Translations under genes and position numbers: made by a program
NCBI GenBank assembly: GCA_044070495.1
Contig: JBIPSI010000034.1
Span: 1-56,703, forward strand
DNA from: Spirulina sp.
GTDB lineage: Bacteria; Cyanobacteriota; Cyanobacteriia; Phormidesmidales; Phormidesmidaceae
Direction of reading: 5' to 3'
Length of the DNA: 56,703 nucleotides
Shown here: positions 16,498 to 47,127 of the stretch, piece after piece
Layout: every line of letters begins with the position of its first letter
Numbering within the stretch: position 1 is the first letter of the stretch
Notes under the pieces: generated by a model
What the model was told of the DNA's origin: nothing
Seen by the model: only the letters and a program-made list of their open reading frames with translations
Database searches by the model: none

Positions 16498-16941
16498 ATG
16501 AGCCGCATGGTGAGAACAATGGCCGTAAACCTCCTGGGGCTATCGGCCCTGGCAGGAGCCATGACGTTAGGGACCACAACCCTACCCGCCCTGGCCCAGT
16601 CCTGCACATCGGGCTGTCAGTCGGGGCAGATTCAGTTCACCCCTGGGGATCGCATCACCGTGCAGGTGGTCAATCGCAGCACGGTAACCATTGACCTAGA
16701 GCAAACCCCCATGACTGGCCCCCGCACCCTGCGACCGGGGGAAGCCATCGAACTGGGCTTTGGCTGGGGCACCTCACCCAATATTTCCATTCTGTTTTGG
16801 CCCCTGCAAGATCGGGCCATTCGCCTCAGACTAGGCCGACCCGAAGCTCAAACCCTGTCGGTGGAGATCTACAGCGCCCCCAGCGAACCCAGCCACCGTA
16901 GCATTTTTGTGGAAAACGACGGTCGCGTTATCCTCCAGTAA
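16498..16941 (+). CDS. Hypothetical secreted protein
   Basis: Signal peptide ending PALA, CxxxC, small beta-rich domain; start uncertain. Confidence 0.65.
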   Translation: MSRMVRTMAVNLLGLSALAGAMTLGTTTLPALAQSCTSGCQSGQIQFTPGDRITVQVVNRSTVTIDLEQTPMTGPRTLRPGEAIELGFGWGTSPNISILFWPLQDRAIRLRLGRPEAQTLSVEIYSAPSEPSHRSIFVENDGRVILQ

Positions 16942-16981
16942 TCGACCAATCCTTAAGTTTTTTGCTTTTTGCCCCACGCCC

Positions 16982-18205
16982 ATGAACCTGCAAGAAAGCT
17001 TCACCATGGCGGCCAAAACCCTCGCCGCCAATCGTCTCCGCAGCACCCTCACCATGCTGGGCATCATCATCGGCAATGCCTCGGTGATTACCATGGTGGG
17101 CCTAGGCGAAGGGGCGCAGCGGTATATCAATGCTCAGCTAGAGACCCTGGGGCCGAATGTGCTGTTTGTGGTGCCCGGTAGCCGAGAAACGCGGCAGTTG
17201 GGGTCTTTGAACATCCCCCGTACCCTGGTGCTAGAGGATGCGGTGGCGATTAAACAACAGGTGCCCTCGGTGACGGGGGTGGCGGCGGAATCCAGTGATC
17301 GCCAGCTCGTGACCCTAGGTAACCGCAACGCCAACGTGAATGTGGTGGGCACGGTGCCCGATTTCCTGACGGTGCGCAGTTTTGAGGTGGCCCAGGGGCG
17401 GTTCATCAGCGATTTGGACGTAACCCGCAATGCCCAGGTGGTGGTGCTGGGGGATACCCTCAAAACCCGCTTGTTTGAGGACGAACCTGCCCTAGGGCAA
17501 TCCCTGCGGGTGGGCGGTGTCAACTTCAATGTGATCGGCATTTTGGAAAAGAAAGGCTCGAACCTAGGGCTAGATTACGACGATGCCGTCATGGTGCCCA
17601 TCACCACCCAGGCCAACCGTCTGGCGAGGGGCGAGCGCTCCCCCTACGGCATTGACGTTTCGTTCATCACCGTCTCTGCCCGCGACCGGGAGAGCATGGC
17701 CACGGCGGAATTTCAGATCACCAACCTGCTGCGCCTGCGCCACAACATCCGCGACGACGACGACTTTTACATCAGCAGCCAAGACACCCTGCTCACCATC
17801 GCCAACACCATCACCGGAGCGCTGACCCTCATGCTGGCGGCGATTGCGGGCATTTCCCTCCTCGTCGGCGGCATCGGCATTATGAACATCATGCTGGTGT
17901 CGGTACGGGAACGCACCCAGGAAATCGGCCTCCGCAAGGCCATCGGCGCATCCCAGGGCGACATTTTGGGCCAGTTCTTGATCGAAGCCATCATCCTCTC
18001 CGTGGCCGGGGGCGTGATTGGCACCGCCCTAGGGGTCAGCGGCATTGTGCTGATTGGGATCCTCACCCCCTTCGAGGCCGGAATTTCTGTCAGCGCCATC
18101 GCCATGGCCGTCAGCATTTCCGGCGGCATTGGCCTGTTTTTCGGCGTCTTTCCCGCCCGCCAAGCCGCCCAACTCGATCCCATTGTGGCCCTGCGTACGG
18201 CATAG
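16982..18205 (+). CDS. ABC transporter permease (MacB/FtsX-like)
   Basis: RSTLTMLGIIIG, ISLLVGGIGIMNIMLVSV.ERT.EIGLRKAIGA, PA..AA.LDPIVALR. Confidence 0.93.
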   Translation: MNLQESFTMAAKTLAANRLRSTLTMLGIIIGNASVITMVGLGEGAQRYINAQLETLGPNVLFVVPGSRETRQLGSLNIPRTLVLEDAVAIKQQVPSVTGVAAESSDRQLVTLGNRNANVNVVGTVPDFLTVRSFEVAQGRFISDLDVTRNAQVVVLGDTLKTRLFEDEPALGQSLRVGGVNFNVIGILEKKGSNLGLDYDDAVMVPITTQANRLARGERSPYGIDVSFITVSARDRESMATAEFQITNLLRLRHNIRDDDDFYISSQDTLLTIANTITGALTLMLAAIAGISLLVGGIGIMNIMLVSVRERTQEIGLRKAIGASQGDILGQFLIEAIILSVAGGVIGTALGVSGIVLIGILTPFEAGISVSAIAMAVSISGGIGLFFGVFPARQAAQLDPIVALRTA

Positions 18206-18232
18206 GCGAGGTCAGGCAATCACCCAGCACCG

Positions 18233-19150
18233 ATGAAAACCGATAAACTCTACTATCAAATTTTTCTGAACCAGCCCGCCCTGCTGGCGGAGTTGATCCC
18301 CGGCCTACCCGCCGACTGCGCGTTTGAGTACGTTGCCCCCGTTGTCAAAGAGAGCGAATTTCGCCTCGACGGCCTGCTGATGCCGCTAACGGAGGAACCA
18401 TCGGTACCCGTCATCTTCATCGAAGCCCAAATGCAGCCCGACCAGCGGTTCTATGGCCGCTATTTCGCCGAAACTCACTTGTACCTATACCAATACCAGA
18501 TCGAACGTCCCTGGCGGGGACTGTTGATTTTGCGATCCCAACAGCAAAACCTCGGCAGCGAAGTTCCCTATGCCACCTTGCTCAACGGTCAGGTGCAAAG
18601 GCTTTACCTAAACGAGTTACAGAACGCACCCGACCTACCGCTAGCCCTAGCCCTGCTGCGGCTGATTGTGCTGCCGGATAATGCCCTACCCGATGCCGCC
18701 AAGCAAGTCCTTGAACAGGCGAAGGGCCAAGGAGACCCCACCTTTCAAGCCATCCTCGATAGCCTAGAAGCTATACTAATCAACAGATTTCCCCAGTTCA
18801 CCACCCAGGAGATTTTGGCCATGCTGGATCTAAAAATGGCCGACATTCGGCAAACCCGCTTCTACCAGGAAGTCTTTGCAGAAGGCCGAGAAGAAGGCCG
18901 AGAAGAAGGCCGGGAAGAAGGCCGGGAAGAAGGGCGTGAGCTTTGGACGCAACAAGGTGAGGCAGCGGCGGTGATTCGGGTCTTGACGCGACGATTGGGG
19001 CCATTGTCCGAAAACCAGGTGGCCCATATTCAGGGCTTGTCGCTGCCGCAGTTAGAGAGCTTGCTGGATGTGGTACTGGATTTGGCCGATGGGGCCGAGC
19101 TAGCGGATTGGCTAGCGGCCCACCCGTTAACCAACCCTCAACCCCAGTAA
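18233..19150 (+). CDS. Rpn family (DUF2887/RpnC-YadD-like) nuclease with EEGR repeats and DUF4351-like C-terminus, copy 1
   Basis: MKTDKLYYQIF, KE.EFRLDG, FIEAQMQ, RFYQEV, (EEGR)n, IQGLSL.QLE.L...LD.....L..WL. Confidence 0.9.
   Translation: MKTDKLYYQIFLNQPALLAELIPGLPADCAFEYVAPVVKESEFRLDGLLMPLTEEPSVPVIFIEAQMQPDQRFYGRYFAETHLYLYQYQIERPWRGLLILRSQQQNLGSEVPYATLLNGQVQRLYLNELQNAPDLPLALALLRLIVLPDNALPDAAKQVLEQAKGQGDPTFQAILDSLEAILINRFPQFTTQEILAMLDLKMADIRQTRFYQEVFAEGREEGREEGREEGREEGRELWTQQGEAAAVIRVLTRRLGPLSENQVAHIQGLSLPQLESLLDVVLDLADGAELADWLAAHPLTNPQPQ
18881..18940 (+). repeat. 12-bp tandem repeat encoding EGRE units in Rpn copy 1
   Basis: GAAGGCCGAGAA x2, GAAGGCCGGGAA x2, GAAGGGCGTGAG. Confidence 0.9.
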
Positions 19151-19348
19151 CGGCGCGACCTTCCAACAGCCATCAAACCGATGGCCTATCAAACAGATAG
19201 CAAAACATCTCACCCCCAGCCTTGCGTACGGGAGTGATGGAAGCCCCAATCGCGAATTACGGCCCTGGCTTCAGCGGCTAGGCTGGTTGTGCCCGTTGCG
19301 AATTGCGGCTTTGGCCAGGGAGAAAAGCCTATTGTTAAAATAATCCTC

Positions 19349-19480: not shown

Positions 19481-20116
19481 ATGACCCTACAACTTGGCGA
19501 TCAGGTTCCCAACTTTACCCAGCACAGCAGCGAGGGCGAGATTAACTTCTACGACTGGGCTGGCGATAGCTGGGTGGTGCTGTTTTCCCACCCCGCCGAC
19601 TACACCCCCGTTTGCACCACTGAGTTGGGCAGCGTGGCTAAGCTCAAGGGCGAATTTGACAAGCGCGGCGTGAAAGTGATCGCCCTCAGCGTCGATGGCG
19701 TCGAGTCTCACAACGGCTGGATTGGCGACATCAACGAAACCCAGGGCGTGGCGGTGAACTACCCCATCCTGGCCGACGAAGACAAAAAAGTCTCCGACCT
19801 CTACGGCATGATTCACCCCAACGCCAACGCCAAACTCACGGTGCGTAGCGTGTTTGTGATTGACCCCGCCAAGAAACTGCGCCTCACCATCACCTATCCC
19901 CCCAGCACCGGACGCAACTTCGCTGAAATTCTGCGGGTGATCGATTCCCTACAACTCACCGACAACTACAGCGTGGCCACTCCCGTGGATTGGAAGGATG
20001 GCGATGATGTGGTGGTTTCCCCCGCCATTCCCACCGACGAAGCCCGTGAGCGCTTTCCTAAGGGCGTTACCGAAATCAAGCCCTACCTGCGTATGACCCC
20101 CCAGCCCAACAAGTAG
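19481..20116 (+). CDS. 1-Cys peroxiredoxin (Prx6)
   Basis: FSHPADYTPVCTTE, GRNF.EILRVIDSLQ, ATPVDW; GGAG RBS. Confidence 0.95.
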   Translation: MTLQLGDQVPNFTQHSSEGEINFYDWAGDSWVVLFSHPADYTPVCTTELGSVAKLKGEFDKRGVKVIALSVDGVESHNGWIGDINETQGVAVNYPILADEDKKVSDLYGMIHPNANAKLTVRSVFVIDPAKKLRLTITYPPSTGRNFAEILRVIDSLQLTDNYSVATPVDWKDGDDVVVSPAIPTDEARERFPKGVTEIKPYLRMTPQPNK

Positions 20117-43395: not shown

Positions 43396-44316
43396 TTACG
43401 GTTCAACCACAGGATGAGCCGCTAACCACGCGGTCAACTCATCCCCATCGGCCAAATCCAGCACCACATCCAACAGCCCCTCCAACTGTGGCAGCGACAA
43501 CCCCTGAATCTGGATTACCTGATCCTCTGGCAATGGCCCCAATCGTCGCACCAGTAACCGGATCAAGGTTGCCGCCTCTCCTTTTTGCGTACCAATTTGT
43601 TCCCCCTCTTCACGGCCTTCTTCACGACCTTCTTCACGGCCTTCTTCACGGCCTTCTTCGCGGCCTTCTTGGAAGACCTCCTGGTAGAAGCGGGTTTGCC
43701 GAATATCCTCGATGGTTAAATCCAGCATGGCCAGAATCTCCTGGGTGGTGAATTGGGGAAATCTGTTGATTAGTATAGCTTCCAGGCTATCGAGGATGGA
43801 TTGAAAGGCCGTTTCCCCTTGGGTTCTAGCCTGCTGGAGTACCTGCTTGGCGGCATCAGGTAAAGACACGTCTGGCAGCACAATTAACCGGAGTAGCGCT
43901 AGGGAGAGCGGTAAATCCGTGGCTTCCCGCAGGTCGTTGAGGTACAGCCGCTGCACTTGGTGGTTGAGCAACGTGGCGTAGGGCACCTCGCAGCCCAAGT
44001 TTTGTTGCTGGGAACGCAGAATCAGCAACCCTCGCCATGGCCGTTCAATCTGGTATTGATACAGATAGAGGTGAGTTTCTGCGAAGTAGCGCCCATAAAA
44101 TCGCGGGTCGGCCTGCATTTGGGCCTCGATGAAAATCACGGGCACCGCAGGATCATCGGTCAGCGGCATCAGCAACCCATCGAGGCGAAACTCGCTTTCC
44201 TTCACCACAGGCGCGACGTATTCAAACTGGCAATCGGCGGGTAGCCCAGGGATCAATTCCGCCAACAGAGCGGGCTGGGCCAGGAAAATTTGGTAGTAGA
44301 GCTTATCGGTTTTCAT
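43396..44316 (-). CDS. Rpn family (DUF2887) nuclease, copy 2; close paralog of 18233-19150
   Basis: Near-identical N-terminal about 200 aa; longer EEGR tract (about 43609-43668). Confidence 0.9.
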   Translation of the reverse strand: MKTDKLYYQIFLAQPALLAELIPGLPADCQFEYVAPVVKESEFRLDGLLMPLTDDPAVPVIFIEAQMQADPRFYGRYFAETHLYLYQYQIERPWRGLLILRSQQQNLGCEVPYATLLNHQVQRLYLNDLREATDLPLSLALLRLIVLPDVSLPDAAKQVLQQARTQGETAFQSILDSLEAILINRFPQFTTQEILAMLDLTIEDIRQTRFYQEVFQEGREEGREEGREEGREEGREEGEQIGTQKGEAATLIRLLVRRLGPLPEDQVIQIQGLSLPQLEGLLDVVLDLADGDELTAWLAAHPVVEP

Positions 44317-44494: not shown

Positions 44495-46870
44495 CTAGGC
44501 GGCTAGGCGTTCGGCGATGGCACGGCTCCAAATGTCTGCCAGTTGGGCTACGGTGTCGGCGATTAGGGGTTTGCCGTCTTGGGTGGTGAGGGTTAACGTG
44601 TCGCCCTGGACGGTGCCAAGGGGTTGCCAGTAACCTGCGAGGTTTTCCGACAAGTAGGCTTCCCAGGCCGCTTGGTGCTCAGGGCTGACGGATACCAGAA
44701 TCCGGGCACCGCCTTCGCCAAACAGCGCTCGATCCCAGCGCAGATCGGTCTGATGAGAGTCCAAAGGCACCGTTACCGCCGCGCCCAGTTGGCCACTGAT
44801 GCAGGATTCCGCCAAGGCAACAGCTAAGCCACCTTCGGCGGAATCGTGGGCGGAGCGCACCCAGCCATGGGCAATGCCGTGGCGGCAAGCAGCCTGTACC
44901 CGTTTTTCTAGGGCCATATCAACAACAGGGGGATGTCCGGTGGCTTGCCCCTGTACCACCATCAGGTATTCCGAGCCGCCCAAGGTGACAAAGGGACGGT
45001 CGTTCACAGTAGCCGTTGCCGTGTTTTCGAGGGTGACGCCTAATAAATAGATGCGGTCGCCCGCCGATTTCCAGCCCTGGCCACAGGTGAAGGTGAGGTC
45101 GTCAATTAGCCCCACCATGCCCACAACTGGGGTTGGGTAGATCGGCTGGGGGTTACCCTCACTGTCTACGGTTTCGTTATAGAGCGACACATTGCCGCCA
45201 GTGACGGGGGTTTCAAACTCGCGGCAGGCGTCGGATAGACCCCGGCAGGCTTCCGCCAGTTGCCAATAGCCGATGGGTTTTTCGGGGCTACCAAAGTTGA
45301 GGTTATCCGTCACCGCTAGGGGCAGAGCACCAACGCAGCTTAGGTTACGGGCGGCTTCGGCGACGGCGGCTTTGGCCCCTTCGTAGGGGTTGAGGTACAC
45401 GTAGCGGGCGTTGCAGTCCACGGTGGCGGCTAGCCCTCGCACCACCGCACCGGGTTGATAACCGGGCACGGATTCTAGCGGACGCAGCCGAATTACCGCC
45501 GCATCGCCTTGGCCGGGGCATTGCACGGTGTTGTTTTGCACCTGGTGGTCGTACTGACGGTAGACCCACTGCTTGGAGGCGATGGTGGGCTGGCTCAAAA
45601 GCTGATGCAGAATGGCGGTCCAGGCAGTTTCTCCGGTGGTGTTGACTAGCCCTGATGCGGTGGCGGTGGGCAGGCTGTCTTCGCTCCAATCCCAGGCGGC
45701 TTGGGCATAGACGGGGGGGGTCGGCAGCAGTTCTCGGTGGTAGATGGGGGTGTTTTCCGCCAGGGCCAGGGCCGGAATTTCGGCGGCGACTTCGCCCTGA
45801 AACAGAATCCGCACGATGGGTTCTTCGATTACCGTACCCGCTACCACGGCATGGAGACCCCAGCGTTCAAAGACTTCAATCACCTCGGCTTCTCGCCCCG
45901 CCGCCACCACAAACAGCATCCGCTCCTGGGATTCGGACAGCAGATATTCGTAGGGCACCATGCCCGTTTCGCGCACGGGGATGAGGTCGAGGTCTAGCTC
46001 AATGCCGACGCCGCCCTTGGCCGCCATTTCGGAGGTGGAGCAGGTGATCCCCGCTGCCCCCATGTCTTGGGCGGCGACGATGGCCCCGGTTTTGAAGGCT
46101 TCCAAACAGGCTTCGACCAGGGATTTTTCTAAAAACGGATCACCCACCTGCACCGCCGGACGGTCGGCCTCGGATTCGTCGGTGAGTTCGGCACTGGCAA
46201 AGCTGGCCCCGCCCATGCCGTCGCGCCCGGTGGTGGAACCGACGTACAGAACAGGATTGCCCCGCCCCGCCGCCCCAGATTTCACAATATCCGGCGTTTC
46301 CATGATGCCGATGGCCATAGCGTTGACCAAGGGGTTGCCGTTGTAGGCGGCATCAAAATAGACCTCGCCGCCCACCGTGGGCACGCCAAAGCAGTTGCCA
46401 TAGTGGGAAATCCCCGCCACCACGCCCTGGCACAGCCGCCGAGTACGGCTATCGGCCAAATCGCCAAACCGCAGAGAGTTCAGTACCGCAATCGGTCGCG
46501 CCCCCATGGTGAAAATATCACGCAGAATGCCGCCCACCCCCGTCGCCGCCCCCTGGAACGGCTCCACCGCCGACGGGTGATTGTGGGACTCAATCTTAAA
46601 GGCCACCCGCAGGCCATCGCCCGCGTCAATGATGCCCGCATTTTCCCCTGGCCCCACCAGCACCCGTGGCCCCTCGGTGGGGAACTGCTTCAGCAGCGGG
46701 CGCGAGTTCTTGTAGCAACAGTGCTCCGACCACATCACCCCAAACATGCCCAGTTCGGCCCGGTTGGGATGGCGACCCAGGCGGTCCACAATCTCGTCGT
46801 ACTCTTCCGGCTTGATGCCCTCGGAGGCAATTTCTTCGGGGCTGAAGGGGGCAGTGGCGTAGGCAGTCAT
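44495..46870 (-). CDS. purL: Phosphoribosylformylglycinamidine synthase subunit PurL
   Basis: [53 protein letters not shown]. Confidence 0.97.
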
Positions 46871-47127
46871 GGCGAGCACTGGAAAAACGACGGTGCTTAC
46901 CGATCTTAGTTCAAATCCATGGGAGAACAGCCCTCTTCCTAGTCTTCGGGGCAGATCCGCCGCCTACACAACGCCTCCATCCTCCGGGGTTGTCGATGGC
47001 TGGTAGCAATGGCTAGCCTTGGGGAACGCTGAGGCTAATTCACTGGTCGCTGCCAAGGTGATGTCGTTCCATCAATTCAATTCGATGCCGTACCCCGACA
47101 TTAGGAAATCGCCCTAGGTAAACACCC

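Follow-up and report, generated by a model that had tools for sequence, protein, structure and literature searches.

Among the closest described systems are the Rpn nucleases of Escherichia coli, in which a small protein, RpnS, blocks the toxic full-length nuclease, RpnL (Zhong et al. 2023, PMC10400941). According to the same source, coexpression of the long and the short protein is broadly conserved across COG5464, and separately encoded RpnS copies carry the DUF4351 (PF14261) annotation. RpnS is described there as having four-residue repeats of hypervariable number, which begin 8 to 20 residues past the initiating Met and lie in a long helix at the dimer interface; neutralization is lost when the numbers of repeats are unequal. 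DUF2887 is a family of unknown function that occurs mainly in cyanobacteria, as stated in PMC3424549. In PMC3045609, it is predicted to belong to the PD-(D/E)XK nucleases, with an EXQ motif, and to be akin to YhgA-like proteins, a likeness that extends into the C-terminal helical region. Here we describe two DUF2887 genes, copy 1 and copy 2, in a stretch of 56,703 nucleotides (nt) from Spirulina sp. (assembly GCA_044070495.1, contig JBIPSI010000034.1, positions 1 to 56,703), which is referred to in its entirety as the window. We propose, with a probability of roughly 0.6, that both are cyanobacterial members of the Rpn (YhgA-like) group which are built as a gene within a gene, the internal gene encoding a small protein (S) that would switch off the full-length nuclease (L).

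Several features of this locus resemble the RpnL/RpnS pairs of E. coli RpnA to RpnE. An N-terminal PD-(D/E)XK nuclease is followed by a variable helical C-terminal tail, and there are several copies per genome. Both systems have an in-frame internal start codon with a ribosome-binding site (RBS) and an internal promoter, which is putative here. In both, variable four-residue repeats appear soon after the internal Met in a long helix, here predicted, that provides the pairing surface. There are also differences. The N-terminal domain is DUF2887 (PF11103) in our genes and Transposase_31 (PF04754) in those of E. coli, and the small protein, at 109 amino acids (aa), is about twice as long as E. 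coli RpnS and is built on an E-G-R-E unit whose glycine occupies a constant position. A -10 box alone makes up the promoter signal, and the system is known from sequence only.

Outside enterobacteria, the nested protein of Clostridioides difficile Rpn was spotted in the same way as here, by a predicted RBS and an internal start. The C. difficile RpnS was seen by immunoblot in E. coli and was gone upon mutation, as reported in PMC10400941, whereas the evidence presented below is comparative. YpaA (RpnE-Ss) and other separate RpnS proteins find their counterparts in stand-alone DUF4351 proteins of cyanobacteria and in nuclease-less copies such as the one termed L003 below. However, E. coli ypaA is described in PMC10400941 as a second small gene just downstream of its rpn gene, whereas the copies found here are products of internal deletions that removed the nuclease core. 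Another cyanobacterial defense gene within a gene that uses an internal start is Cas10d/Cas11d of the Synechocystis type I-D CRISPR system, cited in PMC10400941; the proteins are unrelated, however, and Cas11d is a required subunit rather than an inhibitor. Among the papers listed by our full-text searches, none dealt with a nested gene in cyanobacteria or in DUF2887, although Dataset S1 of PMC10400941, which lists DUF4351 by species, may hold cyanobacterial entries. Judged by titles and abstracts, the term "recombination-promoting nuclease" appears in the cyanobacterial literature as annotation mentions only.

RESULTS

Internal signals in the two window copies

A preliminary description of this stretch had located within copy 1 a TATACT hexamer, an AGGAG sequence, a spacing of 9 nt, an in-frame ATG, and a reading frame of 109 aa. 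All of these coordinates were correct (Table 1). The internal ATG at 18821 to 18823 is codon 197 and lies in the same frame as the open reading frame (ORF) 18233..19150, which ends with a stop codon at 19148 to 19150. The 109-aa product matches DUF4351 at its residues 44 to 98 (E value, 3.5e-14).

Copy 2 has the same hexamer and the same spacing. A 26-mer, GCTATACTAATCAACAGATTTCCCCA, occurs twice in the window, at 18770 to 18795 on the plus strand and at 43754 to 43779 on the minus strand; 100 shuffles yielded 0 matches. When codons for identical amino acids were compared between the two copies, synonymous differences were found at 76 of 148 in codons 1 to 170 and at 3 of 28 in codons 171 to 199. 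This agrees with the earlier claim that the TATACT stretch is kept nearly base for base in the paralog while the synonymous sites around it differ. It should be noted, however, that gene conversion could explain the near-identity over codons 171 to 199 if this pair is taken by itself. Since gene conversion is possible between two paralogs of one genome, the comparison was widened to other genomes.

Homolog set and expectation model

Besides the two window genes, the same genome has two further copies: contig 38 carries a derivative with an in-frame deletion, and contig 45 carries a decayed fragment. Of 61 related genomes searched, 28 gave matches. In a scan of one genome per species, 581 of 602 candidate stretches were confirmed as relatives, and the 80 best loci were retained. 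From 112 loci, 102 near-full-length coding sequences were obtained (39 partial matches were set aside); 99 of these were nonidentical, and 97 remained after dropping two truncated ones. The 97 genes, which form 43 clusters at 60% aa identity, come mostly from cyanobacteria and in a few cases from gammaproteobacteria, with gene G+C contents of 32 to 62%. A genus-level set comprises 11 genes that are 65 to 85% identical. To obtain expected values, the protein was held fixed and synonymous codons were resampled according to each gene's own usage. Clades were taken from a tree of residues 1 to 170 only, that is, independently of the motif. Clade A, which holds the window gene, contains 13 clusters (support, 96/93), and its sister, clade B, contains 29 (support, 98/98).

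Conservation of the internal start codon and its RBS

Met197 is kept in 95 of the 97 genes and in 42 of the 43 clusters. It is one of just 19 columns that are at least 95% conserved in the alignment of the 97 homologs and the sole column of this kind between residues 144 and 256, the other 18 being located in the nuclease core or the DUF4351 domain. The Shine-Dalgarno (SD) motif, defined as at least 4 nt of AAGGAGGT ending 3 to 12 nt before the ATG, was tested by resampling the seven codons before the Met. It was present in 42 of 43 clusters, compared to 16.3 expected from synonymous resampling, and in 95 of 97 genes, compared to 36.1 expected. When every codon of the gene was scanned in the same manner, the SD fraction was highest at codons 196/197 (42/43), while the gene median was 0.07 and the 95th percentile 0.36. 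AT-rich genes, in which GAA and CAA are preferred, nonetheless carry GAGGAG, AAGGAG, or CAGGAG at this site, and GGAG is kept even at 32 to 41% G+C. Going by these alignments, the SD sequence and its constant spacing from a conserved ATG are the mark of selection at the nucleotide level.

The preliminary description had claimed an in-frame internal ATG with an RBS as well as constraint on the nucleotides themselves. The first is upheld by the retention of the Met and by the maximum of the SD scan at the same codon. The second is supported by the SD counts and, in per-position scans across DUF2887 homologs, by the -10 hexamer, which constitutes the top TANNNT excess.

The -10-like hexamer

The TANNNT scan was unbiased in that it covered all nucleotide positions and recorded the excess over synonymous resampling. 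In clade A, the third base of codon 180 showed the top excess of the whole gene (13/13 clusters, compared to 3.97 expected [range of estimates, 3.4 to 4.0]; z, 5.4). The hexamers at that site, 43 nt before the ATG, are TATACT, TATATT, or TATAAT. In clade B, the top excess was found at the second base of codon 175 (17/29 clusters, compared to 4.12 expected; z, 7.1). This site is located 59 nt before the ATG, 16 nt farther upstream than that of clade A, and reads TAGAAT 11 times and TACAAT 3 times. When all genes were counted, TANNNT stood at the site of the gene's own clade in 33 of 34 genes of clade A and 43 of 62 genes of clade B. Since TANNNT attains its top excess at such a site in both clades, a promoter element is likely, on sequence grounds, to be a feature of the family and not a peculiarity of this genus.

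The constraint is confined to few codons. Codons 180 and 181 of clade A exhibited 0 synonymous differences, compared to 29 and 37 expected, which is lower than at any other column of the gene. GAA GCT ATA is invariant in the genus-level set of 11 genes. Of their 137 aa-invariant columns, 13 are also invariant in codon, and five of these are codons 179 to 181 (GAA GCT ATA) and 192 to 193 (CAG GAG). ATA occupies codon 181 in 11/11 of these genes and is the sole ATA of the gene in nine; extra ATA codons are present in L013 and L011. The ATA and AGA codons of this stretch had been called unusual, and both are indeed rare in the window, as determined from 22 long ORFs with 10714 codons (ATA, 2.9% of Ile; AGA, 2.6% of Arg; GCT, 9% of Ala). 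AGA, however, is not conserved, as position 185 among the 11 genus-level genes is either R (AGA in 4, AGG in 1) or K (in 6). The bases actually constrained are GAA GCT ATA CT and CAG GAG.

Copies that have lost the nuclease core

Three independent losses of the nuclease core, in the copies termed L003, L032, and L026, took place by different deletions, and the SD sequence, the ATG, and an open small frame were kept in each. L003 is the third copy of the Spirulina genome. It retains TATACT and CAGGAG as well as the internal ATG, from which a small frame of 97 aa stays open, with fewer EGRE units than in either full-length copy, and its sequence makes it a possible orphan small-protein gene. In L032, residues from about 42 to 183 are deleted and the frame is shifted; the deletion removed TATACT and spared the gene's own 5' end. 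Conversely, L026 lost the 5' part of the gene and kept TATACT, the SD sequence, and the ATG. The ratio of nonsynonymous to synonymous substitution rates (dN/dS) of the small frame was 0.10 to 0.20 for L003, L032, and L026 versus full-length relatives and 0.17 for L003 versus L032.

These copies bear on whether the hexamer acts as a promoter. S might arise by internal initiation on the full-length mRNA without an internal promoter, the hexamers serving another purpose or none, e.g., as an AT-rich stretch that opens the mRNA. TATACT is not accompanied by a -35 element, which weighs against a promoter, and the site was not listed in a sigma-70 consensus scan; many cyanobacterial promoters are without a -35 box. 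The aligned window near codon 186 belongs to the mRNA segments with less structure (mean z, 0.67), and L032 maintains its start signals and small frame behind its own 5' end with TATACT gone. On the other hand, the signal is specific to TANNNT and forms the top excess in two clades at sites 16 nt apart, which a moved promoter element fits better than a generic AT-rich stretch does, and L026 retained the hexamer after its 5' part was lost. We consider initiation without an internal promoter unlikely.

The same data speak to the reading that there is no nested gene whatsoever. Met197 and the Q/E-E residues would then be kept for the fold of L, the identical nucleotides of the two window copies would be due to gene conversion, and the rare ATA would slow translation at a domain boundary. 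In agreement with this, Met197 is located at the end of the DUF2887 model (residues 3 to 198) and hence belongs to a conserved protein segment, the window paralogs are nearly identical over the codons in question, and the window tests at the genus level are modest. The SD excess, however, was obtained with the protein held fixed, and gene conversion cannot take place between genomes from different families. Although ATA is not a rare codon in AT-rich clade A genes, the third-base T of the preceding GCT or ACT is also kept in 13/13 clusters. Moreover, broken copies keep the small frame open. This reading appears very unlikely to us.

The fourth copy of the Spirulina genome (L004; contig 45, 1510-1791, plus strand) is a decayed fragment covering residues from about 104 to 201, with an internal stop and with Thr at the Met position.

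The small module also occurs by itself. A search for proteins of 59 to 191 aa yielded 150 at an E value of <=1e-5, almost all of them DUF4351. Twenty stand-alone proteins were fetched; six start at the equivalent of Met197, two (P0001 and P0002) at the next Met, and 12 elsewhere. Because gene callers take the first good start of a leftover frame, these starts show just that the module occurs alone. The next Met, M202 (ATG at 18836), was rejected as the main start, as it is Ile in copy 2 and missing from most homologs. In Synechococcus elongatus, Synpcc7942_0807, a "DUF4351 domain-containing protein," was detected by proteomics (PMC10754207, table of differentially produced proteins). At least one DUF4351 protein is therefore made in a cyanobacterium, which may be a nested or a stand-alone one alike.

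Four-residue repeats and predicted structure of the small protein

Units of the form xGxx (EGRE, EGRQ, EGKL, QGLQ, and similar) start 20 residues past Met197. For the 92 genes with repeats, the median onset is 19 residues after the Met. The number of units varies from 4 to 8 in the 11 genus-level genes and from 0 to 12 in all 97. The link to RpnS made in the preliminary description holds in that the C-terminal part is DUF4351 and that the repeats begin 20 residues past the Met, both as PMC10400941 has it for RpnS.

AlphaFold2 modeled the 109-aa product from an alignment of 49 sequences with a mean predicted local distance difference test (pLDDT) score of 75.5, as a long helix of residues 13 to 59 followed by three short helices. 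The homodimer model received a score of 0.66, and the best of three controls received 0.00. Of 30 proteins whose structures were solved as same-chain pairs, 20 attained that mark, as did 1 of 23 that had been solved as single chains. Three homodimer runs had at least 93% of contacts in common, with a partner pLDDT of at least 84, and the modeled contacts are in register along residues 18 to 58. Since the crystal structure of the E. coli RpnA-S dimer (7TH0) has already been solved, the model's pass may mirror this likeness and may not be independent evidence for the copy studied here. A VIA-align comparison with 48161 representative chains gave unrelated helical proteins with a best Z of 6.6, and 7TH0 was not listed.

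Family placement, surroundings, and distribution

Copy 1 matches DUF2887 over residues 3 to 198 (E value, 5e-60) and DUF4351 over residues 240 to 294 (E value, 2e-13 [1.8e-13]). Residues D46, E64, and Q66, which are predicted to be catalytic, do not vary across the 97 homologs (97/97). TIGR01784, the NCBIfam Rpn model, aligns with residues 40 to 276 (E value, 3.1e-9; 37.1 bits), and the 109-aa part alone matches the C-terminal end of this model (E value, 8e-5). One DUF2887 fragment (P0074) bears the NCBI name "Rpn family." By these sequence matches, the gene is placed as a distant branch of the Rpn (YhgA-like) group, outside the bench-tested Transposase_31 family.

TABLE 1 Coordinates of the features of copy 1, copy 2, and the nuclease-less third copy
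Feature	Position	Strand	Basis
-10-like hexamer TATACT, 43 nt 5' of internal ATG	18772..18777	+	Sequence and clade A conservation
Shine-Dalgarno-like AGGAG, 9 nt 5' of internal ATG	18807..18811	+	Sequence and cluster conservation
Nested in-frame small ORF, RpnS-like, 109 aa + stop, from M197	18821..19150	+	Met kept in 95/97 genes; DUF4351
Copy 1 full-length gene, RpnL-like, 305 aa	18233..19150	+	ORF and Pfam: N-terminal DUF2887 PD-(D/E)XK nuclease domain, C-terminal DUF4351
Predicted catalytic residues D46, E64, Q66 (EXQ form of PD-(D/E)XK motif)	18368..18430	+	Homolog alignment
12-nt tandem repeat, 4.5 copies, encoding EGRE four-residue units	18880..18933	+	Copy 1
DUF4351 domain, residues 240-294	18950..19114	+	Pfam; AlphaFold2 pLDDT about 90 there
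Copy 2 full-length gene, 306 aa	43396..44316	-	Paralog, about 85% identical to copy 1
Copy 2 TATACT hexamer	43772..43777	-	Same hexamer as copy 1
Copy 2 AGGAG, 9 nt 5' of internal ATG	43738..43742	-	Sequence
Copy 2 nested small ORF, 110 aa + stop	43396..43728	-	Sequence
12-nt tandem repeat, 5.3 copies, encoding EGRE units	43607..43670	-	Copy 2
L003, third copy	Contig 38 of own genome, 1489-2061	-	Residues 8-110, comprising the entire catalytic core, deleted in frame

Copy 1 starts 27 nt past an ABC-transporter-permease-like ORF (16907-18205 of the window) and is followed by a peroxiredoxin-like ORF (19481-20116). Copy 2 is situated directly downstream of a long purL-like ORF (44495-46879). As judged by translations alone, the neighbors of both full-length copies are housekeeping genes, with no defense island. 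Co-occurrence of DUF2887 with transport genes is mentioned in PMC3424549. On the minus strand, the repeat region is overlapped by two ORFs, 18798..19166 and 18830..19027, which were put down to the G+C-rich repeat and dismissed as by-products.

Five loci (L060, L062, L063, L065, and L112, from Chromatiaceae, Methylococcales, Crenothrix, and a methanotrophic mussel symbiont) are DUF2887 genes that group with clade B of the cyanobacterial tree and keep the Met and GGAG. These observations suggest horizontal transfer of DUF2887 out of cyanobacteria. Another locus (L022; genome G055, contig 1, about 471926-475225) is a head-to-tail array of four DUF2887 genes, two of which are both 276 aa long and score alike against the query; it fits the tandem-duplication arrays of rpn genes described in PMC10400941.

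DISCUSSION

In the arrangement that we propose, the full frame would encode the 305-aa nuclease L, in which the catalytic residues D46 and E64-x-Q66 are followed by a long helix joining the DUF4351 helical domain. TATACT (18772-77) probably gives rise to a short transcript from near 18784. On either this transcript or the full-length mRNA, initiation at AGGAG-N9-ATG (18821) would produce the 109-aa S, identical in sequence to the last third of L. If the system resembles E. coli RpnL/RpnS, S may pair with the same helix of L, in register along the repeat-bearing helix. Such pairing would hold the nuclease inactive until a trigger, perhaps phage infection, and matching of S to L would be determined by the number of four-residue units. 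Toxicity of L, its neutralization by S, and phage defense are what we infer from homology to the E. coli proteins.

The last step can be read differently. S might be made and yet be no antitoxin, acting instead as a needed partner of the nuclease, i.e., a DNA-binding or oligomerizing subunit as Cas11d is for Cas10d, or as a regulator in its own right. Toxicity and inhibition are argued here by analogy, and the DUF2887 branch is a remote relative of the Rpn proteins studied at the bench. A helix-turn-helix DNA-binding domain is predicted in the DUF2887 C-terminal region in PMC3045609, and Synechocystis Cas10d/Cas11d is a complementary gene within a gene, cited in the introduction of PMC10400941. 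However, S copies that have no partner are under purifying selection, which an inhibitor or immunity role fits better than an obligate subunit. In addition, a hypervariable number of repeats in the pairing helix is the specificity device shown for RpnS in PMC10400941. We judge a function other than that of an antitoxin to be improbable, about as much so as a start without a promoter.

Other results weigh against a nested antitoxin gene, in addition to the possible gene conversion between the window copies and the missing -35 element. Around the internal ATG, mRNA structure was not locally reduced (mean z at codon 198, 0.19, compared to 1.1 at the true 5' end). Windows of synonymous conservation were modest at the genus level, where the minimum at codons 175 to 178 was reached by 63 to 137 of 2000 column shuffles (3 to 7%). 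In clade A, windows of 3 to 6 codons were not significant (458 to 1480 of 2000 shuffles), because the signal of this clade is confined to the two codons 180 and 181. Given that the window tests were modest, we relied on the per-position scans. The TIGR01784 score of 37.1 bits is lower than the curated cutoff of 52.1 bits, and PADLOC had no matching model. A Foldseek search against the PDB did not retrieve 7TH0 and gave no match at an E value of <=0.001. PDB sequence searches with the protein and with the 49-sequence profile returned nothing relevant, and RpnA-S was not listed. Eight public RNA runs contained at most 0.09 of the sampled words; the gene is absent from them, and they have no bearing on expression. 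In four of these runs, contigs of other organisms matched nothing but the low-complexity repeat and the neighboring genes for the permease and the peroxiredoxin, and none fell on 18232-18786.

A more far-reaching scenario can be drawn for the whole family. The internal promoter and start, encoded in synonymous sites, would be ancestral to all of DUF2887, the -10 element having moved by 16 nt between the clades. Nuclease-less copies, such as L003, would not be remnants in decay but free-standing immunity genes against incoming or lost Rpn of matching repeat number, with the number of repeats acting as a bar code of self and nonself among cyanobacterial Rpn systems. This scenario is speculative and, in our estimation, unlikely.

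Bench evidence for a nested Rpn antitoxin is limited to genes of E. coli and a single Clostridioides gene. Its extension to DUF2887 would be no surprise to specialists, because the 2023 paper (PMC10400941) argued for broad conservation of long and short protein coexpression. The small proteins described here are all missed by annotation pipelines. If the proposal is true, the locus would be a clean case of promoter and ribosome-binding signals held at synonymous sites within a coding region. It would also provide a function for a family that has long been listed as unknown or "putative transposase" and that is present in many copies in many cyanobacteria, as well as in some gammaproteobacteria, and it would add a defense system to those of cyanobacteria.

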